A stretch of DNA of 60,237 bases, the filler included, from Hausera hauseri (taxonomy: Eukaryota), in NCBI GenBank assembly GCA_046269625.1. It is 12 parts of 12 records of this genome, joined end to end, with 100 filler letters (N's around TTAATTAATTAA, not from the genome) between each part and the next. Parts side by side here need not be neighbours in the genome. Positions count along the whole stretch, not along the records: positions 50,440 to 54,855 come from JBJURY010592667.1; 11 more parts are not named here. One strand, 5' to 3'. Below are positions 28,097 to 59,200 of the stretch, one piece after another. The notes under the pieces were generated by a model that was not told the DNA's origin, did no database searches, and saw only the letters and a program-made list of their open reading frames with translations. How positions within the stretch are numbered: the first letter of the stretch is position 1; every line of letters starts with the position of its first letter. The position numbers and the translations under genes were made by a program.

Positions 28097-31000
28097 TTAC
28101 AGTGCTACATGTCCGTAAGATAGTGTATGAATTCCATCACTCAGGATCTGCCTCTTGTCATCCATCCAATCTAGACTTTTCTTATGCAGTGTTACTGTTT
28201 GGATCTTATGATCCCTAGATTGGATCCTTCTCATTTCCGATTTGATGTGAGTCTGCTCATGCAGAATTGTCACATAGTCCTCAAAAGTGATCTTCTTGGC
28301 TAAGGTAGCCCTTTGAACGTCCTTGACTCTCTTTTTGATCTGACTACATACGTCTAGGGCATTTATTTGAGATCTGGGAGCTACAAATCGCGAGATGATT
28401 GCTCCATTCACCTCTGCTTTGAATTTCCCAAGCATTTTCGGATAGTCCGAGGTACATGTGTTGAGCAAATTGGGAAAAGTCCTGATAAATTTCATCTGCA
28501 TGGATATGATAGATGAAACTCTCAGTATCACTATACGTCAGCTGCATGGACGTGAACTTGGGACGATTATATCGTAATGGAATCTGTACATCAAGGTCTT
28601 TGATAGATCCAATATTGCCATACCCACATATATGTGCTTGTTGAATACCAATGCTGTTTTCAGCATATGGATGCTGGCAAAGTTCTCAGAATATATGTTA
28701 TTGCTGTGGAAGTTGGGCTCGGCAATGATCTTCTTTGCCCGCTTCCACTCAGAGACCAGTTCGATGTTGATCCTTTTGCGGATATTCTCCATGGTCTTGC
28801 CAAAAATACTGTTGTTGTATAGCTTGAATTGATCATTCTCAAAGTCGTTCTTGGCATTAGTCCGCAGCTTCGTATGAAGATCTATGTATGACTGCAGCCA
28901 CATGGACTGGTTAAACTGCAGAGCTCTATGGATCTTAGTAATACGAAGTCCATGTCTAACTGCCTGCTGGAGATTGATGTAGTGGACTACATACCTCTCG
29001 ATATTACCCAGACGACAGAGCAACTTTCTCTGCTTTCCATGGGTGGGAGGCCTGCTCTCAGGGAGGAAAGGCAGCTTGATGCCTTGTGTGGATGGAAGCC
29101 GGATATTCCATATCTACCTCCAGTATGTATCCCTTATCTCCAGTGGGATTCAGGTCCAATATAGGGATGTTTTCAGGATTCTCGCCCCATTTGAAGTTAT
29201 CATATGGCAATGGGATGCACATTGCCCATCCATACAAGTTGTTGGCATCCAGGTATGATATATGTGAGGATTCCTTGGATGGATCATTCTGGGTCATATA
29301 CTTGTTGTTGTCCTCACTATACTTGTGAATGGCCTGGCATATTCCGCCTCTAATGCCTCTCTCAATCATAAGGATCATATCATAACCCTTAATGATTTGA
29401 AGCATGATATCAGTATATCTCAGCATTTCTGCCCAGCTCATCGATGGAGCTGTAAAGAAATGAGCCGGATCATATGCATGGCTCTTCACTGTAACATCCC
29501 TGAAGCTCTCAAAGACATCCGTCAGCAGCACGTCCGTCGTTGTATTCCCTTAATGTTCGGCATTGAAATGCCTGCCATACATTCTGGTCATGCTGGTAGT
29601 CAGCATCACTGATATCGCAATAAGAGAGGATATTGTAAAAGTCCTTCTTGGCCGGTAGTGAGATCTCATCCAGTGTTTCCCATGAAGTTATGTAGTCATA
29701 GGGAAACACGCATTTCCTTCTAACCAGGTCAAATGCAGTGGGAAAAAGCCGCTTCGTCTCCTTGAGTTCTTCTGCAAGGAAGTTCTTCACTAAACTGTCC
29801 AGTGAAGACGACATGAAACGAAAGCTGTCTATGAAGCGAAGCCTGATTTTCCAAACATACTTGGTAAAGTTGATGTATTTTTCCTCACTGTTGGGGATGA
29901 CATCACTGTTTCCTTCAATGTTGCCCAGTTCCCGAACAATGAAGTGGGAATCATAGCCACTGAGGTTGTGAAACACTACAGGCACATATGTACATGTTAT
30001 GCAGCGTAAAATGCAGCTGTTGCATGCTTCCCCTCGATATGCACCTGTAAAATGACAATGATCCCTGACTTTATAATTATCCTTAGTGAATGATTTTGAG
30101 CATAAGTAACATGTTGTTGCCTTGCGCCATTCTTCTTGTTTCTTCGACATGCTCATATTATCTTAATGCTGCTGCAGCATGTTTTCAAGCTTATGAGCCA
30201 TATCTTCAAGTCTCTTCATGAAATGTGCTGCTGCACATGGACCTCTGAATAGAAATGGTTCATTGTCTAGTCCTATGGCATACGTGCTATATGATGAGAG
30301 TTCATGATATTGATATGCCGTTGTGCTGCTGTGTTGAGGACTAGGAGTGCATGTCTGAACTGGATGCAGGATAGCTTCAAATTTGCAATAGATAACTATT
30401 GGGACCTTGATCTTCTTCTCGAACTCCTTGAATTCAATATAGTCTTCCTTGGAGAATTATAGCCTGATACATTAATTGTTATTGCAGTGCATTTTGTGCT
30501 CTTTACGCCTGTCCACTGCTAAATCACCACTGAAATGGGACAAGCATCGTTTACATATTTCTATTTGTCCATGATGTTTCGTAATTTGGGATCTGACTGC
30601 ACGTTCAAAGTTCTTGATCCAAACATAATATTTCTTTTCCCTATCATTTAGTAGCAGCAGATCCCTATGATTTCCAATTCAGTATTGCATATATGGAAGG
30701 AATAGAATTTGTCCTCATTATCGAATCCAATGATGTTGATGGATATATTGTTGATTCGACTGAACTTCTTGACTTCATCTATGGATGGTCGGAACTTAAT
30801 ACATTGGAAGTTATAGTTGTGCTGCACATCCTTATATAGCCAAACTTGTGAAGCATTATTTTGATCTCGTACGAGCTTGTATAGAATGGCATGAAACACT
30901 TGTTGTCATCATTAAGGACATTGATGCATGTTTTTATTAGCGATCCGAACAGGGAGCTGAATATAATAACTACCACGCATGGGAGAGTACTTGTGAACAT

Positions 31001-31579: not shown

Positions 31580-33779
31580 GTCTATTTTTATTGATTTTTA
31601 TTTTATTTTGGATATTTTATGCAATAAAACAAAACACATGTAAAGAAAGTTAATAATTTTAATGGTAGGGCAAGTTTGGCTCTGCATATTGTAGTCAACA
31701 TGTTGCACTTGTTTTCTCAACATACTGCACATTTGTTTCAATGCATAAAATGCATAAACATGTCACGTAATTTGATTTATTTAAACAAAACTCAAGGTAA
31801 GACCTTGCTCACATGCATGAATCCGTGATTATGCTACTTGTATTGCCATCGTATTGCATTTGTCTTGTCAACGAGTTATATTTGTGTATTTTTTTTAATG
31901 CATCATATAAATTAAATGCACGAGAGTGACAATTTCGATTATGTTTTCGACCATAAGGAATCGAATGACGTCATAAGATTCTTCGAATAATGTATACTTG
32001 ATCGAGTTTTCGAGTTCGAATCAATAATTATTCGATTTTGAATAATGTATTCGAATATCTAACACCAGGTTCAGATTCATCATACATTGTTTCCTATCTA
32101 CGTTCACTATTAAATTTNNNNNNNNNNNNNNNNNNNNNNNNNNNNNNNNNNNNNNNNNNNNTTAATTAATTAANNNNNNNNNNNNNNNNNNNNNNNNNNN
32201 NNNNNNNNNNNNNNNNNTTCTATTTGTACATTCACATAGAGAATCGATGTTCCACTCGATTGCACCCGGTGCCATGTGCTAATTATCAATAATGGGGTTA
32301 TCAGAAATACAATATTATTGATTTTTTCACACTTGCACATGCGTAATGCACCCGCACAGTGCACCAATCGATGTGAACTAATGTTCACTACCGATTAGTA
32401 CTTTGTTCTAATCGACTCGACAAATAGTGCAATGTGTAGCTATCGATTTGTGAAATGTGCAAAAATGTGCTTAGCTACGGTGCCTAACGGCACCATTGCC
32501 TGCAGCATTACCGATCGATAGTACACCATGTGCAGAATTGATTCAACCGTTACCCCCGGGGGTGCGGCAGACTTTAATTTTCCCCTACTTATTTATAATA
32601 TAATGTTTTGTTTTACACAATGTTTCCTCTTATCTTAACTAAAAATAAAATTATTACCTTAAAATACCGCACATTATATACATCGAAAGCAACCTAATTA
32701 TATCAATATAAGTTTATCAATGCAAATCTTTATTGTTCATCTTAATTTTGCATTAAAAGTCATAATTTTTATTATTTTTTGCATGAAAAGTGTCTTATAT
32801 GCGGTATTTTAGGGTAATCAAATTTCAGTTTCATTGAACTAAATCACACACTTGACTAACCAGTATAAACCCCAAATTTAAAGTTTATTTGAAGGCCCCA
32901 TAAATTTTAACCAAGATGAATTTCACGGAATTCGACAGCATATATGCCGTTTTTTGTTCATTTTCAGGATTTGTTAATTATTTCTTTTCGATTTTTCTTT
33001 TCGTATTTATGAAAATCAGAACCAAAGAAAATCAGACCAATGTAAATAATTTTTTGATACAAAGTCAATTTTCCAAATATACTTTTTTGAGTCTTTTTTC
33101 GTTGAATTATTTTGTAAATGTTAGCATACTTCAACTAACGAAGTTAAATGAAATGTGTATATTGACTTCTCAAGTTGTTTGTATTTCATTAGATTTTTTT
33201 CGGTAAAATATGACTAAATTGGGTAAATATTTCAAAACAACAGCTTTTCATGCAGTTATTTTTCAGAAATTCTTGGTTAAATAAACTTTTCTATCATTTG
33301 GCTAACTTTGGTCCATTTTAATGAGGAATTTTGATAAATTTATGTATGTTGTTATTTTGACAAGTATGTTCTTAATTTTACAAAAAATATGCATGTTTGC
33401 TGCTCTTGCATGTGTGTGCCTGTATGCAAATGAGTTAGTATTGCCATGAGTGTGTGTTTCTATAATAATAATAATTTGACTATTCGTAAATTTTTGTAAA
33501 TTTTTTTGTTAGATATTTTCGTTTATTTTGCAATTTTTATAGAAACATTTATTTAGCTTTGATATTATATTTTTAACATTTATTTACTCAAATTTCTTTT
33601 CAGATTGCCTAAATTAAGTCATGCAGCCAGTACAATAGATGACAGGAAAGGTATAACTTTTTTTTCAATGTTTAATTGATATACGACAATAATCAATTTG
33701 TAGAAAATATTATTTAAATTCTACGTTAATTTTAACCATTTGATTTTTGTATTACGAATAATAACTTTTTCAAAAATAA

Positions 33780-35360
33780 ATGGATTTTCCTTTTCCGGAC
33801 AGTGTCATGAAAGGTTGGAAACGGGTGAAAAAAGTCTACCAAGCATCAACAACGACGGCGTTTACTCCTGTTCTTAGCATCGAAGGTCATGTCGCCCATC
33901 CATCTCTGACCCGAACGTTTCAAGCATTGGAAGGTTTAATTTTGGCCACGATGTTATCCGATGAACATCATTATCAGAACACATTATCTTTGGTGTCAGA
34001 ATATGAAGATGATATCAAAGTGTTGGGTAAAGTTTTACGACACGAATGGTTAGCGGTTGATTGGGAAACGCGATTGGAGCGTCATCAGCTTTTGACAGGT
34101 GGATGCTTTGGTACTGTTTACCGGGTTATTGATAATGTAACAGGCCAGTATTTCGCGTTGAAGACAATTGAGATAAAAGGGTATTCAGTGCAGGAATTTT
34201 TCGACGAACTATATTCAATACTAATGGAAAGAAACATTCTAGTTCAAGTTAACGGGTGCCCATATATTCTGCTATTACATGGAGCATTTATATCGAGTTA
34301 TAATGGTGCGTTTTGTATGGTGTTGGACTTCTGCCCATCTACTTTACAGTCGTTTTTGCAAGAACAGATAATATGTAGCAAAATCGAACGGCTTTACCAA
34401 GCATTTGCCAGTGGACTGGATATTGTTTCTCTAATTAAAAGCAAAATGGACGCCCAGTTGAAATTTGATTTTCATGGAATCTGTTTCCTGTTCCTCTTCC
34501 AATTGTTGACTGCATTGGACTATCTTGGTCGTCGACACATCGTCCACGGAGATATCAAACCGTAAAATGTTTTTTTAACGAATTTCGGCAACATAAAATT
34601 GGCTGATTTCGGATTGTCTCGACGATTTACACCGATTGATCGACAGTTACAAGTCATTCTTTTAAATAACGTCAAGAAGTTGGGTAATATTCCTATTTAT
34701 AATCAAATAGTTCGTAATCTTGGCACCCCGCGATATTTTGATCTAGAAATGGAGTTGTACAGTCTGGAGGATGCCGGGAATATTGAATTTTATACAAGCC
34801 GATTTAAAACGACCGGAATACCACAAACTAAAGACGAAGGCCCTCAAACGTTCTTCAGTGATGTCTACGGCATCAGGTTGATAATTTCTGAATTAATTCT
34901 TGGCAGGGTGTTCTTTGTTTTCTATCGGTATAAAAACATCGTCCGTAAACGGTTTCCAGTAAATGATAACGCTGATACGTACTGGCGCCTTTTGGTGACG
35001 TATGACAGCAACATATTCGACAATTATGTCGTTGGTGACATGCAGAAATTTCTCGAAGAAAAATACCAATCAGCTGCAGAACTATTGATTTCAACTCTGC
35101 GATCCCGATATTTTCGTTGTGAAAATTATCGAAATATTCAATCGGTGTTCCGGTATAAAAAGGTTGTTTCTGAACCGTCAATTGATACCAGCAAAGTTGA
35201 AATTATACCGTACTATAAAGATCTTGATATTACGAAATACAAGGTTAAAAATATCGATGAACTTACGAAATGGGAAGGTTTCAGTGACAGCTGGATTACG
35301 CAATGCAATGAAGTTTCCATATGGTGGAGATGTCCACAATTGTCGCACATGGATGGATAA
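33780..35360 (+). pseudogene. Divergent Ser/Thr protein kinase, intronless, with a nonsense codon in the catalytic loop
   Basis: GGCFGTVY, FALKTI, HGDIKP*NV (TAA at 34563-34565), LADFGLS, GTPRY, SDVYG; the two ORF halves are in the same frame. Confidence 0.9.
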
Positions 35361-35361
35361 A

Positions 35362-35893
35362 ATGGGTAACAGTTACAAACCAGGAAACAAAGGAGTCCCA
35401 TTTACTCCAAATGATGGCAGTGACGTTCAAATTGTTGGAGTGTGCGACGCTGTTTTGGAATGGCTTATTGGCATTCAAGCGACTGGAATTTATCCTCATA
35501 AAGGAGTGCAATATCGTGGTCAGTTACTTGGACTGACTGGTACATTAATATCAGAGTTTTTTGATGATATGTTTTTTATTCCACTTAACGCCACGGATTG
35601 TCATTTCGCACATAATCGCGATATATATCGAGACACTGTAAATTCCTGTTCAAGATTTACCGACAATCAATTCAGACCAAAATTTGTTACGGCGGTGACT
35701 GTTGCACCATCGCTCTTCAAAATTAGAAAAGCATGACGTTTTGGGTTTAGCAAAGAAAGACCTTGGTCCCATTGGAGTTCGTACGCTTTGTCCTCGAGAT
35801 TGGGCTTACAGAGTCTATTACGACAACAGCAATGATTCAACTATTGGTAAAAGTACGTTCGCAAACACTGATGAAGCAGTCATCAAAAAGTAG
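35362..35893 (+). CDS. Hypothetical protein (MGN start), probably frameshifted near 35720
   Basis: ATG one base after the kinase stop; protein-like composition; continues in another frame to 35893; no recognised family. Confidence 0.4.
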
Positions 35894-35929
35894 TGATGAT
35901 TCGACAAAAATTTCCCACATCTGAATTCC

Positions 35930-38900
35930 ATGCAAAACAAAAACGATGAACTAAATTTATTCATTTCAAACCATTATTCTGACATTCTGGCAGCATACCA
36001 GGTGTATATGTACAGCGCCATGCTCTACAGTGACTACATCTACATGCAGCAGTGCACTCTGCTCAACAAGTCCACCGACTACATATCAGACATCATCAGC
36101 CGTTTATCGGAATCACAAACCGTTCCATTGACAAAAGACAACACTACCAATTCCATATTCAGATGTGCTGCAACTCATCTGCTTTCAAATACATCAGCAC
36201 TACTCACCGACTTGACGGAAGTCGATTTTCATGACATTTATCGACACAGTAAGAATATTGTTGCATTGTTTCTTAAATCAAAAAATAATTTCTTTCTAAT
36301 TAGTGATTTAATGCGATCGGTAACTTTATTGCCATATATATCGAATACCTTGCATGATTTAAAGGGAGATTCGGATACCCACAACATCTTTCACTACAAA
36401 AATCGTCGAGCAGTTGCCGGACCCGGTTACGCAGGTTTGGCCACCCAGAGGTTGCCACGCCAGCGAGGTGGTGCCATGCGTCGGGTTGTCGCACCAATGC
36501 CGTCCGAGCGCCGGGCGTTTTTGCGTTACGCGCCACAATGCCAACCCGTCGCCCAGACCCTCTATCTTTACCGCCATTTTTTACTTAATAATAAAAGTAT
36601 ATACACTTACACATTGAAAGACACACTACACGAAACACGTATTTACCACCACCTTGCTAACCTTCTAGGCACTTCTAACTTTTCTTATCTTACAACGGTC
36701 TGATCATCCACAATTTTTACGATCTTCTCCTTTTCAGACACTTCCTTTCTCATTCAAATTAATTTCAAAATCCTTGGCGGCATGAACTCGCCACCTTCGA
36801 TCGACACCACTGAAAAACCAAAATCTATTCACATATTACGCTGCGCCGGTACAGTTACACCTCCAGGCCTCCCTTTCGGCCACCACTGTACTGATTTCTT
36901 TACCGCCAGTCAGAACCCAAGCCAAACTTGGCTTTAATTTCATCAGCTCTGGCTGCAATCTGCAAACATTACCGAATCTCTTCCAAAGGCCCATAGTCTC
37001 TTCTACTATCTACCAAATTCAATTAAAACTCGAATACCCAATCTTCTACAACTCTTCGAACATCCTGATTCTTACAAGGAGCTATACAACGCTGTTCTTA
37101 GGCTTACAGAGCCTTCTTTGGATTCTATTATTCAACGCTACTTCAATGAGAACACCCTAGGCAATCAAAAGCCCTCCGAATTTTTACAAATAGCTCTAAA
37201 TAACTTGAAATCACTCGAAGTAATACAGGAACACAACGCAAATCTTTTAAGACATTATTTTCTCCACGCTCTACCCTTACAAATTAGGGGTCCATTAACC
37301 GTGGTTGAAGAATCATTAGATCTTCACAAACTAACTGAGTTAGCTGACAAATCATGTGAATTATTGCAGATGCACACTCCCTCACTTATCTCTACTACCA
37401 TCACACTATATAACACACAAAAAATACACTGCAGGAACAAATAACTCAATTAAAAGCCGACAATAAAGCGCTGCTAGAAATCATCAACAGCATAAACACT
37501 AAATTAAACCAACTGTCTCTCACCACAAGATTTTCCTGGTGCCGCCCATTCTAATACATACCCACTGAGCAACAGACGATCGCCATCGCCCGTGCGATCG
37601 TCAATTTGTTATTACAATACCAGTTTTAAAAATAATGCACACTAATGTTGCATCGGGTGCAAATTTATTGAACCTAAATTTAAGTCAAACAGCACCATAT
37701 GCATCTACCATTCTAAATTCAACACTAAAGCCATAAAATGTTTACCAGGCTGCAACTTCAAAACAAATGAATCTAGGCAACCCTCAGCTAACAAACAACA
37801 TCAAACACAGCAAAAAACTACTAACGTCGCTAGAGCCATCGGCCATCTCTAGCGAAGGTACCGCTTTGCAAAATGACAGCCGAAACACAACATTTGCAGT
37901 TTTTACGTTGGAGGCAACTGTTGTTACTCCAATAAAACATAACATTAACTTCCTCATAGACACAGGAGCAGCTGTCTCTCTGCTTCCTCCTAGACATGAG
38001 GTACATAACAAAACACATTGACACAAAAAATTATTCACTGCATCAGGAGCAGAATTAAACATCTTCGGCACTACGAATATCACCTTTACATTACCACACA
38101 ACAAAAGCACATACAATTGGGCATTTACAGTCGCCAATGTCCAAACACCTATATTGGGATCAGACTTTCTGTCCCATTACCACCTACTGGTAGATTGCAA
38201 ACGCCGCTGCTTGATTAACTCAAACCAATTTGAACAACCTAATTCTGTGAATATCATTTCGACGACCGAACGGACGATCACTGGTTGTAAACCTGCTGTT
38301 AAATTATCACATTAATTTAAAGTATTATTATAATCATCCATTATTTAGAAACTACTATAATGCAGTTGACAAATATGATAATGCCAACTCTTTGACACCT
38401 TTCGCTAACAAAACCGCTCGCAACACGATTTTCAATTCCACAATATTGCACCAAATTCCATCTAGTCTTGATAGTACAACGTTTTCCCTAACTGAGGCTA
38501 AGCAAATCTCAACATCAGCATCACCGTCAACCATTTTATCATCACGTCCACTGGAGTTGCAATCCTATGTATCTTCTTCTTGCACTTGTTTGTTGCAGAA
38601 AGGCAAAGCTTTTAAACCAGTCATGCACACTTTCCATCATATTGTCACAGAACACGAGAGACCCATACGACAAAAACACAACCATTATCCCCACGTCGAA
38701 GACACGCAGTTGAAGCCGAATTTTCAGAACTACAATGCTTAGGCATCATCAGAAGATCTAAATCTTCATGGGCTTCGCCATTACATGTTGTCCCAAAAAA
38801 GGACGGATCTTTTCGCCATGCGCCGACTACAGGCAACTAAATCAGATCACATCCATGGACGCCTATTCTTTGCCTAGAATCAATGACATCTTACATAGAC

Positions 38901-39091
38901 TTCACGGCTTTACCATTTTTTCAAATATCGATTTCCATAAGGCATACCACCAAATCCCTGTAGCACCAGCGCACATTCCAAAAACGGCAGTAACAACTCC
39001 TTTTGGACTTTTTGAACATCTATACATGCCATTTGGCTTACGCAGTGCAGCCCAAACCTTTCAGAGGCATATAGACACCGTCCTCGCAGAC
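35930..39091 (+). mobile_element. Ty3/Gypsy Ubl-Gag lineage copy C (long N-terminal ORF-Ubl-gag-PR-RT), degraded
   Basis: Gag FHQLWLQS, GNQKPSEFL, ELADK; double knuckle ~37605-37755; protease FLIDTGAAVSLLP; RT DYRQLNQIT...YSLPRI, IDFHKAYHQIP, TTPFGLFEHLYMPFGLRSAAQTFQR. Confidence 0.95.
36575..36781 (+). other. Ubiquitin-like domain ending KILGG, fused to Gag Met (ATG 36782), frameshifted
   Basis: HFLLNNKSIYTY...LSYNGLII...SFLIQINFKILGG|MNSPPSIDTTEK; aligns with copies A and B across frameshifts. Confidence 0.75.
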
Positions 39092-49657: not shown

Positions 49658-50339
49658 TCAGTTGTTGCTGACGAGGTACTCCATGAGAGCATTTCGGAGA
49701 TATCTTCCCTCTGCCACATCCCGTGCCACTCCCGGACCCGGCTGCTGGTGCGCAGGTGCTGGCACTGGTGCAGCTCCTGCATCAGGCTGGTCCAATGTTG
49801 TCTCGTACCTCTCTCCATGGCTTTCGCAAAGGTTGTGTAGAGCACAGCAGGTCTGCACCATCAACTTTACGAGTTGCACATCACAGTCATTTTGTTTCAG
49901 AAGGCAACGCCATCTTCCCTTAAGTCTGCCAAAAGCATTCTCCACCACAACACGTGCACCACAAATTCTCTTGTTGTATAACTGCTGTTCTGCAGTGAGC
50001 CTACCAGTGTCAGAGAAGGGTTTTAGGAGCCAGTGAAGCAAAGGATAAGCTGAGTCTCCCAGGATGTAGTAGCCGGTATCCACTGTGCCAATGCTCCTGG
50101 TGTGTGGTGGGAAGAGGTTTCCCCGGTTGGCAAGCTCTGACAGAGCAGAGAGTCTGAAAACCCTAGCATCATGAGAGTTTCCTGACAGTCCAGCAAACAC
50201 ATTCCAAAACAGTCCCTTTCCATCCACAACAGCCTGAAGTATAATGGAATGCCAACCTTTTCTGTTGAAGTAGTCTGTGTGGTACTGTTGTGGTGCTATA
50301 ATGGGTATGTGGCTGCCGTCAATTGCACCCACACAATGT
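49658..50339 (-). CDS. Harbinger DDE transposase (HARBI1-like), C-terminal part, open frame
   Basis: CVGAIDGSHIPI, YFNRKGWHSIILQAVVD, HDARV, GDSAYPL, RVVVENAFGRLKGRWR, CCALHN. Confidence 0.96.
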
Positions 50340-51636
50340 NNNNNNNNNNNNNNNNNNNNNNNNNNNNNNNNNNNNNNNNNNNNTTAATTAATTAANNNNN
50401 NNNNNNNNNNNNNNNNNNNNNNNNNNNNNNNNNNNNNNNGAATGATTCAATATGCCTGCGGAAACGGAATAGGTTTTCGAACTACACAGGTGAACGAAAT
50501 ACAACCAAGATTGAAAGAAGTTTAAGAAGATGTGCAAAGAATAAATACAGCCTTGGTGGAATGCAGACCTCCGGATATTGGAACGAACCCGAGTGGTACG
50601 CCTACTTAGACGCGATATTTGTAGAAAGATCCGCGACTCCTATACAGCTAAATGAAATAGAAACATGTCCGCGGAACAAGAGGTTCAAGGTGGAGATGCT
50701 CCTGGATTCAGCTCTAATGGAAAAAGATCTAATCGAACTAATTTACGTAAACATTACTGAAAGTAAGTTAAGACAACTTATTCCGACATTAACTAAATTA
50801 TCTAGTGAGAATACAATTTATACCACGGTGCCGAAACTTTTGATAAGGAAATACTTTAAAATACAATTAATAGATGTCGGGATTATCCCTGACTAAACAA
50901 ATTGGATAGTAGCAATAATAGCTAACGAACAGACAAAAGAAAAGGCCACACGTAAAGCTAAACGGAACAATGCGTGTGACAAATTATGGGAGTCCGTAAT
51001 GCTGCAATGTATTTTGAGTATTTACAAACGGATGAAAATAAGGAACAATATGACATATAAATTTAATACCACTGAGTGAAATAACAACAAAAGGCCCAAG
51101 GCCGAAACGCTCAGTTGGTAGGCCTAAAAAGATACGAGAAGAAGTCGATTATAATGGAGAATTAATTAGAGAAATGAGACAGATGTCGATTCCAACCTTC
51201 AGTACAAACAATGAGAAATTAAGCCAGTTGATGAAGAATTTAATACGAATTGTAAATCACTCAAGCCTTCGAGATGATGTATTAGATGATAAAAAAAAAA
51301 TTTTCGATGCAGCTAAAATGATGAGAAGTTCGCGTTTAAAACTATAGAAAAGTAACTTTACTGATGAATCGGTAATTGAAAAAATTATGTTAGAGAACAC
51401 CAACAGAGTTAAGAAAAGTATTACTATATTTAGCTATCAAAATAAACCCTAATAGGGAAAATGAAATCAATAGAGCTGTAAGTTTAGTACGTAAAGCAGC
51501 AAGAAGATTGCCCTACGACGTAAATTGATCAAGACTATTCGAAAAGGAGGAAGACAGGCGGGAGAGTAATAAACTCGATGATATGTTGCGTAATTTAACA
51601 ACGACGGATGCCGGCTACCGGAAAAACGAATCAAAT

Positions 51637-53460
51637 TGGTTAATCAGCCTTCTCACCTTGATGATGCTAATAAAGCACATAAGCGCTGTTACCGTCTACT
51701 ACTATAATAAGTTTAAATTAGGGCAGAGATATTCCTTAATGGGTCTGGAGGTGTGCCAAGATACCACACCGCACAAGTTGGAGACAAGAGAGAAAAATTA
51801 CTTCCTGTGTCAACAACAAGAACTAATATCATTAGATGGAACGGAATGCATATTGAGACGATCACGTAGCATTTTAGACAGTGGGTTGGAACACGGACAT
51901 TCTTCAATAATCAAACCAACAACTCCTCTAATTCCAATGAATTTAGAACGCCAGCACTGCAAACAAGCTAAGGAGACTGGAAGGGTACAATGGGACAGTA
52001 TGCAATTAGAAATGCAATTAGGAAAGATAATTAGGGCGTATAAGATAGTGGCCGGAAGATTGCATATGCATAGAGTACATTGTTACGGAGCGGAATACGA
52101 TACCGGAAAAGGATTACAAGCGAATGTAGTGGTCGTGGATTTTTACGAATCAGAAATGCGATCACAGAAAGTAATGTTCCATAGTGTCACTAAGTTATAC
52201 ATTGAGAATCAAAAATGTCATTTACAAGACGGAAACTGAGCATTTAGAAGTTCTGTTATAATCTTGGAACCTCCATCTGGAAGAACTTGTAATTTTATTA
52301 AAATTAAGGAACTGAAGTTTAATGAAACTACGGGAAAGCGATATGCGGATAAATCGGAAAGCAACTCGAGGACACGCGAGGATGTATCAGAACACTCTAC
52401 ACCCACTATATTAATCTCGGATCAGCACGGATTGAAATTTATTAAAAAAGAGATTATCTCTTGTTGTGATATAGTGCTGTTCGCTACTAACTATGAGGTA
52501 TTTTTCGTCGCAGAAACGGAAATAAATGCAAAGACTTACAAACTAAAAACGCAGGATGTGCGAATTGAGGACTATCTGAAAAACAAAGACGATTACTTCT
52601 ATTACAAACGGCAAATCGGAATAACGGAGTTGTATCACAAAATGATAATGAATAACTGTAAATTAGATACCGAGATCATGAGGACAAAATTGGCCCTTAT
52701 ATACGCCAACCCAGAAATGGTTTCTCCAATAATACCTACGACAGAGGGAATTTTCTGTCGGGTTACAGGCGAAGTACTGCTAACCTATGAATGCGAAAAG
52801 AGAGATGTACCCCTCAACGTGGAAGAAAAACGTTGCATTCAGGAACTTCCTGTCATCTATCAGAATACTCCGAGGTTAGCTACACCATTGACAAGAGTGT
52901 TATTGGATAACGCTACCCAACCAACTATCTTTAAAGATTGTAAAGCAAGCTTAGGCGAGCCCATGTTTAGACGTAGTGAAACAGATTGGGTTAGTTTGCC
53001 AAAAGAGGTATTACTGCCGCTCCAAATAAATTAACAGAAAAAAACCTTGCGAAAGGAATTACGGACGATAAATTTCAAGATACCTCGTCGAAGGGCATAT
53101 ACAGGCCTAAGGAAATCGAAGCCTTCAGACAATTCCTCGCTTTTCCGCAACAAAGAACACAAATTAAATCGAGCCATGGCCTCAGTAATAGATGATACCC
53201 AATATCAAGCTAAATGGGAATCTCTACTTGGCGTAAACCATTATCAACGAGTAACGACCGAAATACTCTATAAAATTTAGGGACGATTTTTGATTTTCGG
53301 ACAAGACGCATCGGGATTTTTACCGATATATTTCCTGATACAAATGATTAAAGCAGTCATCCAAGCAGTAATAAATTGGTAAGAAATATTTACATTAACT
53401 GGATTTTCATATAAAATACTGACTGCAATCGTAACGCCCTTTGGAAAGTTATTAAAGACA
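51637..53460 (+). pseudogene. Chuvirus-like envelope glycoprotein (class III fusogen-like)
   Basis: Signal-like WLISLLTLMMLIKHISA; YSL..LEVC; HSS; C...TG; VAG..HCYG; YLKNKDDYF; NC.L...RTKL; GEVLLTYEC; CIQELPV; PLTRVL; GIY...FP; C-terminal hydrophobic FLIFG...IYFLIQMIKAVIQ. Confidence 0.8.
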
Positions 53461-54149
53461 TACGAAGAAAATAAATGGAAATTGGACGTAGAACGCCATA
53501 TTGGCTACTATAATTGTAAACGAAGACGAAGGCCTGTATTCTTGCGAAAGCGGAAATTTTCAAAACCTAATACGCGAAGAAATATTTCAGATGATGACGA
53601 GCCTAAGGGAGGAGAAGTACTTCCAGGAATAAACAGATATGAGACGTACTCTGTCATTAAAGCGCCATTGTCTATGCTATCTTCTACCGCTCCAGTCTAT
53701 GAAGATTGTGCCAAACGATCAATGAGTTCATGTCAGACGGAGATTTATAAAAGAACAATTAACGTAGAAGACCCTTATTAAGGAACGAAACGCTATGGAA
53801 TCCTACGGAAAATGTGTTACCGACAATCCGCAGATGGTCCCAGGATGTTGTATTCTCTGAGAGAACCTTGAAATATAGAAACTAAATAAACGATTTGGGA
53901 TAATTCAAGATTAAAAACCTTTCAAAATACTGAATTACACACTAACAATCGGGAACCGTTAATCAGCACTTACGAAGTAGAGGACTTAAATATCGAAAAC
54001 AATGAATTATATCCAAACGGGGAGTTAAGACAACTGGCAGAGCATATAGTGTCCTCCCCAGAAATCTGAATTAACGGACACAAGATATCGGCGGTAAAAC
54101 GCTCAAAGAATACATTGAATTGTTTCAGAACGGAAATAGAAGGAAGACC

Positions 54150-54855
54150 CTTCGCAAAAATCATTATAGGAGATTGAGAAGTTTATGCTTTAATCGATAC
54201 AGGGTCTGAAATATCTTACATTAAAAACGATTCAATATCTGAAACGCTAAGTGGACAATTACATCCACCATCTACCAAGGATCCAGGAAGCACGGCAGCT
54301 TTTGGTGAAATGTCGAAACCGATGTTTAAATGGAATCCAGAAGTCCAAATAGTTAGACAAAAATTTAGTCATGAGTTTTCAGTTATGGAACAATTTACCG
54401 ACGATGTCGTCTTAGGATGTGATCTACTCAAAAGAATACCAAATATAATGATCGACTTACAAACGGGGAGGCTGGTAAAAATCGGACTAAATAAAGGTAT
54501 AAAAAACGCCAAAGAAAGAAAATTTGGAGAAGTATGGATACCAATTGATGAAAACATTCTACCAAGAACGGAAATGCTAATTTACGCCAAAATACAGCAA
54601 GATGACGATCAAGCGGTATATTTTGAACCTAAAGATACATTAGATTTAAATATAATGTTTAGCAATATACTAACAAGAGTACACTCCGGTCGGTTGCCAA
54701 TCAGAATAGCTAATAACGCACCAACCCCCGTTAGGCTTCATGTTTATACCACTCTAGGAAATACCTATAGAGTATCGTCAGTAACTATTGAAGAAAAAAC
54801 TTATAAATATGCTGAATTTCCACTTCATGTCGAAAATAAGTTTTCACCTGAGTCT
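54150..54855 (+). pseudogene. Retropepsin-like aspartic protease plus dUTPase-fold-like spacer of Gypsy pol
   Basis: VYALIDTGSEISYI, DDVVLGCDLL, then ILPRTEMLI...LPIRIAN...VRL...TLG. Confidence 0.88.
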
Positions 54856-56299
54856 NNNNNNNNNNNNNNNNNNNNNNNNNNNNNNNNNNNNNNNNNNNNT
54901 TAATTAATTAANNNNNNNNNNNNNNNNNNNNNNNNNNNNNNNNNNNNNNNNNNNNTCATATTTTAAATGCATATTATAATTACTTATTATATATTATTTA
55001 TTATAAACACGTATTATATACCCTTCATGAACAATTTTTGTTTTTGCAAATCATATATATTGCTTTAATGCATTTTAGTGTAAAAGGAATACTTAGGCCA
55101 ATTTGCCCGAATCGCCTTATTGTTAAGTTCAACTGAACTGTCACAATCGACAATTGGAATGCTGTACAGGTGCCAAATATTTGTTAGCTTTCAGTTATAT
55201 TCGTTGTTATTGTTTAAAGATGTCGTTTTCATTCTAGGAATACGTAACGACAATAAAAATGAAAGTGTCTGTCAATATGATAATACTATGCTATATTTAG
55301 TTGCTTGTGCTAGGACCCATCGGTGACGAAAAGAACGCGTGGAACGATAGATTATCTCGCACCGGAGACTGCGCAATGTCGGGCACAGTACAGACGTTGA
55401 GTCATAGTCGTTGGGTTGTATAATATGAGGGGTTTTCATTATTTCATAAATTTTAGTTAATAATACAGATACAGAGTGGTTTTGAATTTCTTTATGGAAT
55501 AAACTATATAGGAATAAATTAAGCTAAAATTATTGAAGGAAAATTTCTCAATGGGATTTTGATAGATGTTAATTCGAAAATGAGTTCGCGGTGCACGTAA
55601 TTGGTTTCTTGTTTGCAAAACAAGCAATATTGCCTTGACCGGAAGATGCTAAAATCTTTTTCCAGTGTGACACAATGATCATTAAACTTATTCATACAAA
55701 CACAAAAAACTTATTGGTTTAAACTATTTGGCCACTTTTTTAATTTCGGCTCTTGTTGATTTTTACACCTGCAAATTCAGTATTTCTTCCAGAATCTTCC
55801 CATGCCGGTTAAGTACTTTTTCGTCCGTTAGTGTTTCGGAACTGATCGTTTGGTTGGGGTGATCATTTAAAATTTTGCGCTGCCTGCCGACGTTCTTATT
55901 AAAGACAGCCAAGTTTTGGGTGGTCCAGTCGGATCATATGAAGTGCAATTCCCTCCTCACTTATGAGTGTTGGTAGGATGGTTTGTTGTTTCGATGATAG
56001 CGCGCAACCAACCATTTGTTCCTTCGATCAATGTAGAGTTTCAGTGGAGTCGAAATATCTTTCATGCACTTCTGTTGCGATTTGATACTGGAGCGGCAGA
56101 GGTTCTGTCTCGTATTATCGTACGTTCCAATTAATGAAGTACGGGCGTCTAGGTGATATTTGTTTCGGTTTGGACCGGTGTTGGGTCATGAATTACAAAA
56201 GTGTACAAGTCGAATGGATCGTCTTCTCGTAGTTTACCCAAACTTTTCTACTTCAGACATGCTGGGTGATTCTTGTTCGATCAAGTCGTCCGTATCTTA

Positions 56300-59200
56300 C
56301 TCATGATAGCCGAATGCTGGTTTTACGTTCGATAGGTGAACTATACATTCAGTACAGTTGCATACTATTTTGGCACTGTGCTCAGTCATTTCTGAGTTTG
56401 TAGAACCCGTGTCTTTGTCGGTTTTTAAGCACACAAAGGAAGATTCTTAAAGATTCTTCTACACGAGTGCTTTTTTGTGGTTATTGTGGAATGCAGGGTT
56501 CTTGTCAATTGATAAATAATTTCGTGGTAGGTTAAGAGCAAAGATGAAAGTTACTTCCTCATTGCTCGTAAAATCGTACAGGAATGAAATGAACACCAAA
56601 TAATAATTGTTATGAAGAGGCATCGGTGCTAGTATTAGGAGTGTTTCTACAACCCAATAGCACGATGGGCAGCTCATCTAGACAGTTTTTCTTGTAATGG
56701 CATACGATTCGTAAGGGTGATTTGAGTTTGGGATTAATCGTTCAATCAAACCGTTCGCTTGTGGATGGTGTTTTGAACCAAGTGACTTGGTTAATTAGTT
56801 GAACATTGTTGATTTGAATTGGGTACCTTGATCTGTTGATCGAGAAATCTGTGTATTTAGTAATACGGCCGCAACCCTTTGCGTTGTAATTTGGCGAATT
56901 GGAATAGCTTCGGGCTATTTCGTTTTCCTGTCAAGAATGGCTAGGATAAACTGATATCCTTTACATTCGGGAAGTAGTCCTACTATATCCGTATGAATGG
57001 TTTCAAACCCTAGCCAGTAGGATAGTGCAATATTGGTGGATGTAGTCTTATTGACTTTATACTGTTGACCAAGTGAACATTCCTTTGTCCAACGCATTAT
57101 ATCCCTTAGAATGCGAGGCCAACAGACTACTGCTTACTAGACGAGCTGTGGTTTTGATCCGGGGTGATAGATATTGCGGGTGGTATCGAATGTCTATTTC
57201 CACACGTTTTCTACAAGAATGGGGCCTGGTCAACCATTGAGGATGGTGTTATAATATATTCCATCCTTGTCGAATGTCTTGAAGAACGTGATATCGTCTT
57301 AGAATGGAGGGGGCATGATCGTGCAGATTGTGAACACATTTCCTTTGAGGAAGAGTCGGAAATGTTTGATGCTGAGAATTATAGCTAGTAATTTGTGGGA
57401 AAATAATTCAATTGGAACATGTTTGTTACCGACTGGTTGGGTGAGTATGACACCTGCAGCAATTGTGGATGCATCTGTCATTAAGATAAACGGTGTATCT
57501 AAATAATAAACAATTTAGGATAGTGTAGTATGTGGATGTGAAATAGTGCCGTTTTTGCATCGGCAAATGCCTGTTCAGCCTTATCTGTCAAATTTATCTG
57601 GGATTTCTTATGTCCCTAACTTAAAGCAGACAGAGGCGGCAGTATTTCCAAACAGTGAAGAATGTAGCGATAACAGGAATTAATTGTGCCAAAGAAGCTG
57701 CGAAGCCCAGACTGTGCTGAATATTGAATTCTGTAGTTACCGCAATGTCGGTATGAACCGTCTTTTTTGACTATCATGTGCAGTTGTGATGTCCATAGCG
57801 ATGTAGAGCTGTGAATCATGACTGGTTCTTTGAAGTATCTAAATTCAGCTTCCGCGGATGCTGGCTTGACAGGATCAACCTTCCCATATGGTTGCCGAAT
57901 TGGGCGATCACATGATGTGACAAGAAAATGTGATGTTTTCACATCTTTCTGTGTTTCTTGTGTTCAGCGTTTGGGTATTGCACTTGGAGCAATGGTGCGA
58001 TCTCAACGGAATTTGAAATTTTGATGCTCGTGACCGCGTTTATGATTAGAATAAATACACGTGGAGGCAATGAATTGCACCCACTGGTCGGAACCAAGAA
58101 ATGGTTGCATGACGTCGGCCAATATGAAAGACCTGTGGTTGGAATTCGCGTGCCATTGGCAGCTTTGAGCGATGCGTGAGACCAACGTTGGTCTAGCGTA
58201 TATGCTAGGTATCAGCGATAAAGCTGCGCCTGTGTCGATTAAAAAATGGAGTGTTTTCGAGATGCCAGTGTTGTAGCTCTTCTTCAAGTTTGAAAATAGC
58301 GTTGACGATGTGTTCCATATTTTTGTGCGGCATTTGTGATGATTGGATTTCCAGTCAATGTGCCGATGATCGTGTGGGTCTATTTAGTTTTTTGACGGCT
58401 AATAAAATTTGCGGCCGCGTCAACAGATTTTTGCATCTAGACCAAAGTGATCGTGATAAATACAAGTGTCATGCATTTTCACAGCTGGGGATGACTTGTC
58501 TTAGAGACAGCAGTGATAACATTTGTGGTGGACTCGCCGAATCGCGTATGAAAATAGCAAATTTTAAAAAGTTTGCCTTTCTGGCGCTTGGGGGTTTGAC
58601 GTCCAGGTGACGGTTTGTCTCTGGTCGGCAGATTCTTGGGGGTTACAAGTGTCTGCAGGGCAGCAATAATTGTGTCCAGTTGATTTTGTTGGATCGCATT
58701 AACGGACTTAATGCTTCCGGTGTTGCGAATGCTACGGTGTCTTTATTACACTCGTATATTTTATCGGCTTTCGATGCCACCGTCCAATATGATATAATAC
58801 AGCAATAGCACAAGTGCCGCTTAAACTTGGCTTGGCAAACTACTAAGGAAGTAGTCGCTTTGTGAAAACCAAGTAAAATTGGCCTCGTGATGACAGATAT
58901 GCTTTGCATATGGCTGATTTAATTTTACCAAACGGCTTTTCATCTTACAGCAATGTGACTTGATCCGTTATGCCTGAGAGCGTTATTGACTGCAGCTATT
59001 GAATCAGGGTTAGGACCTTTTTAACTGGCTAGTAATGCTGTATTGAGTGGCCAATGTTTCAAACACATAAAACCACTTCAATGGCATTCCGTCTGTACCG
59101 ATGAAGAAGGTTAAACACGCTTGTTTGGGCGGTTTGGTCGGTGCTGCTGAAGCAAGTTCGGCTTTTTTGTCGGGCGCATTGGTGTCAACGAAAGTATGGT

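Follow-up and report, generated by a model that had tools for sequence, protein, structure and literature searches.

The window analyzed here is a 60,237-nucleotide stretch of DNA from Hausera hauseri (GenBank assembly GCA_046269625.1). It is highly probable that one of its contig pieces, positions 50440-54855 (JBJURY010592667.1), holds one decayed copy of a retroelement present many times over, with a class III fusion glycoprotein (G) preceding the protease in a shared frame, that this element is likely of the GAG-ENV-POL Ty3/gypsy kind, and that its ancestor was likely made as one Gag-Env-Pol chain. The piece is bounded on both sides by 100-base assembly spacers (44 N + 12 + 44 N), and because the window consists of contigs joined by such spacers, the neighboring pieces are not flanks of the G-protease element. 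Reverse transcriptase (RT), integrase, and long terminal repeats (LTRs) are unseen because this 4.4-kb piece stops at a spacer about 100 codons before RT. The first-pass annotation began the element at 51421; coding sequence in fact begins upstream of that position, in frames other than +1. The features are as follows.

50440-54855, plus strand: whole contig piece, read as internal to a multicopy Gag-Env-Pol element (spacers; coverage in a public run, X1)
50717-50857, plus strand: remnant of the helical half of a module that precedes G in relatives, frame +2 (module profile, independent E-value 5e-4; tblastn to P0161 amino acids 535-606, E 0.009)
51117-51128, plus strand: GRP-K motif in the spacer before G, frame +3, which we take to be AT-hook-like (also before G in 9/24 relatives)
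51637-51687, plus strand: internal signal sequence, with a predicted signal-peptidase site after its last residue (hydropathy 1.92; matching stretch in relatives)
51688-53313, plus strand: class III fusion glycoprotein ectodomain, interrupted by stop codons (52237, 53278) and by one compensated frameshift (PF24664, AlphaFold, Foldseek)
53314-53460, plus strand: transmembrane anchor at 53314-53373 (amino acids 632-651), helices, stop at 53380, and basic stretch (hydropathy, model)
53461-54141, plus strand: tail, predicted to be cytosolic, and linker, sharing the frame of G and protease, with four stops (stop depletion in frame +1)
54142-54465, plus strand: retropepsin-type aspartic protease, ALIDTGS, with catalytic Asp codon at 54196 and stop at 54175 (PF00077, clade profile)
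54508-54834, plus strand: conserved region between the last protease and RT of relatives (tblastn to P0002 1110-1340, E 1e-15)

A class III fusion glycoprotein in frame with a protease

The frame +1 translation, in which X replaced stops for profile searches, matched the Monjiviricetes_fusion family (PF24664) at amino acids 75-680 (51643-53460) over model positions 6-601 of 653 (E 4.8e-43), and scored 147.5 bits against a curated cut-off of 27. Eight near-invariant cysteines are retained. AlphaFold, given a 101-row alignment, predicted a gB/G-like fold with a long central helix, preceded by the signal and followed by the anchor; the predicted local distance difference test (pLDDT) score was 86.6, with low confidence in the frameshifted stretch. 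In Foldseek the model matched both chuvirus-type glycoproteins (best E 9e-33, template modeling (TM) score 0.57) and herpesvirus glycoprotein B (gB; best E 9e-12, TM score about 0.38, with a high root-mean-square deviation), as the first-pass annotation expected of a viral fusogen. G is thus a class III fusogen of the chuvirus/gB type. The translation has hydrophobic segments at amino acids 73-93 and 632-651, and hydropathy returned the exact coordinates proposed earlier for the signal-like segment, 51637-51687. An AYDC-like G start has a matching hydrophobic stretch before it in 22 of 26 relatives; the residue at position -1, placed by motif, is small in 21 of these 22.

Between 51421 and 54834, frame +1 contains 10 stops in 1138 codons. 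The G part has 1 stop in 457 codons (shuffle mean 32), the tail 4 in 237 (shuffle mean 17), and the protease part 1 in 231 (shuffle mean 17); for each part 0 of 2000 shuffles were as low, and the depletion is confined to frame +1. The profile of related glycoproteins tracks this frame except at 53010-53165, where it follows frame +3 (E 4.7e-9) before returning to +1, which is one compensated frameshift. Profiles, hydropathy, and stop counts therefore confirm the anatomy first described for frame +1 (signal-like segment, G, anchor, tail, and ALIDTGS protease) as well as its interruption by point stops and a single compensated frameshift. The window copy is dead and decayed.

The protease matched RVP (PF00077) at amino acids 908-1006 with 21.7 bits against a cut-off of 20.7, and a protease profile built from the clade of relatives described below matched it with E 1.5e-18. 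When the window protease and the region following it were compared with 33 protease regions, the 12 best were all the last protease before RT. RT begins at residue 1449 of P0002, about 100 codons beyond the end of the window match. A profile search of the tail (53461-54141) found no second, decayed protease. RT or integrase pieces at 4736-5900, 38635-39091, and 56660-57121 were considered as a continuation of the element and rejected, being on other contigs and 25-47% like clade Pol; Pol identity within the clade is 46-89%. Elsewhere in the window, 8267-9189 (plus strand) carries a protease and pre-RT region resembling those of the clade (E 6e-10), with no glycoprotein match upstream.

Many collinear copies in the host

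Run X1, the one public run found to contain this stretch, is of the same organism and possibly the source of the window DNA; no RNA run containing it turned up, which carries no information about expression. Its contigs number 13,745 on the element piece and cover all 30 bins, with summed depths of 900-45,463 that do not represent copy number. On the next piece, contigs of 693 and 1,293 bases showed no difference, as fits the same organism, and flank depth was 3-9. Gap-free alignments of pieces about 81% alike extend over 53593-54073 and 53688-54012; a further one, with a single gap, covers 53817-54237 and crosses the protease active site. The element is thus highly repeated, in many collinear copies, some bridging tail and protease, and is not the one-off insertion or chimera that the first-pass annotation had named as one outcome that would overturn its reading. 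Among 40 of the 1,078 differences, 27 fell inside the finding, the best supported there, and 26 of these hit the first or second codon position of frame +1 (P 2.6e-4). Such a bias is expected if the family is constrained in frame +1 while this copy decayed alone.

Intact relatives encode Gag, G, and Pol in one chain

A HMMER search with the window G over 1.84 billion proteins gave 382 matches, the strongest of which are chains of 1,250-3,240 amino acids; a word-index search with the same query gave no match. A second search, with P0002 as query and restricted by design to proteins of 1,570-4,997 residues, gave 13 matches, all with G and protease. From these relatives 26 clade members were hand-picked, several near-duplicate pairs included, and Pfam scans were run on 19 and 11 proteins. 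A protease follows G in the same chain in 23 of the 26, the chain extends to RT in 15, and a zinc knuckle precedes G in 14; knuckle, G, protease, and RT stand in one unbroken chain in 8. The single G-protease-RT chain with an internal signal, proposed from the window alone, is therefore seen in intact relatives, where open frames extend from Gag as far as integrase. Their Pol runs from protease through RT and RNase H to integrase with the GPY/F motif, no scanned clade member has BEL/Pao domains, and, of the solved structures, Ty3 Gag-Pol is the nearest to a clade Pol (E 1e-100). These properties of the relatives favor the earlier assignment to Gypsy. Judged by its relatives, the element is likely of the GAG-ENV-POL Ty3/gypsy kind; the window itself reaches the protease and the pre-RT region.

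One 2,627-residue Gag-Env-Pol clade chain, P0003 (HBK71150.1), is filed in a Flavobacteriaceae genome bin and is most likely animal DNA in that bin. In P0148, a PF24664 glycoprotein is fused behind immunoglobulin domains. Among DNA loci, one (L001) is a gypsy locus at 34% to Pol. Two others, L002 and L003, are Pol-half loci without a 5' half, in which no LTR pair was seen; both have ankyrin repeats within the long open reading frame (ORF), followed at 6861-9923 and 7268-10374, respectively, by a 460-490-residue frame and a DEDD (RNase_T) exonuclease frame.

In a 119-row tree, window G fell within a G-then-protease group of 26 rows that includes four shorter proteins (support 100), and in a 37-row tree it fell within the corresponding group of 19 rows (SH-aLRT 98). 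This group stands apart from named chuvirus G, from wasp and beetle proteins, and from the BEL/Pao-type P0030. By these sequence comparisons, window G belongs to a separate Env-before-Pol clade and does not fall within the chuvirus or insect stand-alone glycoproteins that were sampled, tree rows being called stand-alone by protein length. Across 13 relatives, G and RT distances correlated with r 0.91 (0 of 9999 permutations as high), and the G and RT trees shared 8 of 10 splits. Because G and RT co-diverge, their association has been long and stable.

Upstream module and downstream extensions

Between the Gag zinc knuckle and G lies a module of 150 residues, matched in 14 of the 26 relatives, 11 of which were used to build its profile. 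Its predicted fold (pLDDT 91) combines a helical part with a ubiquitin-like part. The remnant at 50717-50857 is the best match to this profile across six frames of the whole window; the ubiquitin-like half has only a weak 19-residue match there (E 0.02). The upstream "N-domain" of the first-pass annotation is the far end of Gag, since the relatives' chains start with capsid and zinc knuckle.

The relatives also extend what the window shows. Two to five protease domains follow G in 17 of 23 chains, against one in the window; some chains carry one or two further proteases after integrase, and P0152 (4,844 residues) totals seven. Among 17 Pol-bearing chains, 15 run 370-1,570 residues beyond GPY/F and contain at least two more hydrophobic segments, which can be read as a signal and an anchor belonging to a second, predicted membrane protein. 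An atlas search with the post-integrase ectodomain of P0121 gave no usable match. The proteases after integrase, the second membrane protein, and the exonuclease and ankyrin features of the two Pol-half loci would occupy positions beyond the end of the window piece.

Other elements in the window

Decayed fragments resembling cellular genes are stacked before a gypsy gag-protease-RT at 32218-39091; they comprise a Ser/Thr kinase (33780-34565), a glycogen-debranching C-terminus (35089-35736), and a CPSF_A-family piece (35900-36703). A search with captured-gene fragments for the phylum of the host gave no match. A GC-rich frame of 1,078 codons with DUF5906 (817-4053) is probably a polinton-like part, as is a DNA polymerase B of the protein-primed type, accompanied by endonuclease VII, at 28097-30162 on a separate piece. 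The minus strand carries a DDE_Tnp_4 transposase at 49661-50338 (E 1e-33) and, at 56100-59200, a separate decayed gypsy element with high summed depth in run X1 and low-depth flanks on both sides.

Discussion

The arrangement suggests how such a chain may have worked. Gag would be made in the cytosol, and the internal signal would thread G into the endoplasmic reticulum, where signal peptidase would free the N-terminus of G, Gag being left tethered to the membrane. Transfer would be halted by the G anchor, so that tail, protease, RT, and integrase would be cytosolic and joined to G until cut by the protease of the element. A second signal, located after integrase in most relatives, would export the second membrane protein. 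The core, the fusogen, and the enzymes would then lie in equal amounts on one membrane and could bud together as an enveloped particle. This topology, like signal-peptidase processing, the tethering of Pol, and particle formation, is predicted from sequence.

Several observations weigh against a single Gag-Env-Pol chain of Ty3/gypsy type as the ancestor. RT, integrase, capsid, and LTRs all fall outside the piece, and the viral and prokaryotic collections searched contained no complete G-bearing element as DNA. The window is frameshifted upstream of 51421, leaving the continuity of Gag with G visible in relatives only, and window G sits on a long branch, sharing only about 30% identity with its closest relatives. 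Three of the 26 relatives (P0004, P0014, and P0017) end at or in G. Finally, the four tail stops are a slight excess over the 1.4 expected at the rate of the remaining frame (P 0.053). The last two points would also suit an element of the same gene order in which a genuine stop within the tail terminated Env and Pol was made apart, by read-through, re-initiation, or a spliced RNA, the shared frame being a relic and Pol untethered. Chary and Hayashi likewise treat GAG, ENV, and POL as three ORFs, as their methods are described, and allow ENV-POL gaps of up to 2,000 nt (PMC13524379). We nevertheless consider separate production of Pol unlikely, since stop depletion in the tail is limited to frame +1, its length is preserved in diverged copies, and the chain goes on into the protease in 23 of 26 relatives.

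We give very little credence to each of two other explanations. Chuvirus glycoprotein fossils are common beside arthropod gypsy fragments, according to the sections available of PMC10084718, and the best viral fold matches of G are chuvirus glycoproteins, so that an ordinary gypsy element could have received a chuvirus gene in a single insertion, or the two could have been joined in assembly. But thousands of contigs run collinearly across the entire piece, G clusters with chains that have Env before Pol and stands clear of named chuvirus and insect proteins, and the upstream helical remnant and downstream protease fit the same clade; the copies that bridge tail and protease largely refute this reading. 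It is just as improbable that G ends a BEL/Pao element of the Anakin type and the protease belongs to a second element. Chuvirus G capture is known for BEL/Pao, as the consulted text of PMC7642597 reports, and P0030 has DUF5641 before G; this protein lies outside the clade, however, whose scanned members lack BEL/Pao domains, and neither an LTR nor a non-coding gap separates G from protease.

The preferred reading, a Ty3/gypsy element with Gag, G, and Pol in one chain, bears on how enveloped elements are built. Splicing sets the ratios of the parts in retroviruses by separating Env from Gag-Pol. With Gag, fusogen, and Pol in one membrane-threaded chain, assembly, stoichiometry, and processing would have to be solved differently, and the shared divergence of G and RT indicates that this solution is old. 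For a gB-type Env, the second predicted membrane protein could supply the receptor-binding partner that is missing. More tentatively, and with somewhat less than even confidence, the window element and its relatives may belong to an undescribed old enveloped Ty3/gypsy lineage on the flavivirus plan, with virion and replicase as one chain of 2,600-4,800 residues and four membrane crossings, a class III fusogen before Pol, an attachment protein after integrase, a ubiquitin-like module ending Gag, and up to seven proteases. The value of the finding lies in this anatomy across relatives, namely the conserved internal signal, repeated proteases, ubiquitin-like module, and second predicted membrane protein, and the window copy adds a divergent, high-copy family.

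Comparison with known systems

The first-pass annotation placed Env after pol in errantiviruses and retroviruses and called the layout unusual. Neither a rule that Env follows pol nor an undescribed layout is supported, for Chary and Hayashi (eLife 2026, PMC13524379) describe, in the text consulted, GAG-ENV-POL Ty3/gypsy "ancient errantiviruses" with an HSV/gB-type ENV (HSV, herpes simplex virus) in Nematoda, Bryozoa, and Platyhelminthes. Their search covered non-insect genomes; the same text mentions 114 arthropod gypsy elements with chuvirus-like G and cites Sacco et al. 2022 for nematodes. In the literature searched, with subscription journals mostly outside it, the eLife paper was the sole match for a gag-env-pol layout. 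As described there, those elements resemble ours in gene order, in a class III gB-type Env with a signal or two hydrophobic ends, in a Ty3/gypsy Pol, and in being multicopy, and their span of about 8-9 kb (with 6 kb of added flank removed) fits the shortest relatives here. Their gB-type ENV between GAG and POL corresponds to G before protease in the window, to Gag before G in 14 of 26 relatives, and to the match of the window upstream region to the post-Gag module. They differ, by description only, in having three ORFs with no fused polyprotein mentioned, and the bioRxiv version, as far as its text was available, mentions neither ubiquitin nor ankyrin. The fused topology, the module before G, the repeated proteases, and the second membrane protein were not found in the literature searched, on which the eLife figures and sequence files, and Sacco et al. 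2022, could bear. The gene order itself is therefore published, and the further anatomy of the clade is a variant worth describing.

The nematode endogenous retroviruses (NERVs) of Sacco and colleagues are reportedly metaviruses with a captured RNA-virus glycoprotein before pol and a continuous gag-env-pro-pol ORF, and are said to be restricted to chromadorean nematodes. Such an ORF runs end to end in 8 of 26 relatives here and is broken in the window copy. Mosquito BEL/Pao elements of the Anakin type (Dezordi et al. 2020, PMC7642597, in the portion consulted) share the chuvirus-like glycoprotein family but have a BEL/Pao Pol, whereas window G precedes a protease; the one BEL/Pao-type match, P0030, has G after the integrase-end domain and is outside the clade. 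The available sections of Dezordi et al. 2023 (PMC10084718) report no clear gypsy capture of chuvirus-like glycoproteins. As candidates of the same kind, Troyka (PMC12440569) was rejected because it is described without an envelope, and the rotifer elements (PMC5408684) because env is described after pol, although they have a DEDD exonuclease ORF in common.

Glycoproteins of chuviruses and other Monjiviricetes and herpesvirus gB share the PF24664 family and class III fold with window G. Chuvirus-type glycoproteins differ in standing alone, at about 650 residues with an N-terminal signal, and are 15-18% identical to it in structure alignments (gB about 10%). An endogenized chuvirus was rejected, as G is not nested among the sampled chuvirus glycoproteins. 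The structural polyproteins of flaviviruses and alphaviruses combine a cytosolic core with internal signals and with membrane proteins that signal peptidase and a viral protease set free. By analogy, the clade chain may follow a similar working plan with no homology, these being positive-strand RNA viruses with class II fusogens.

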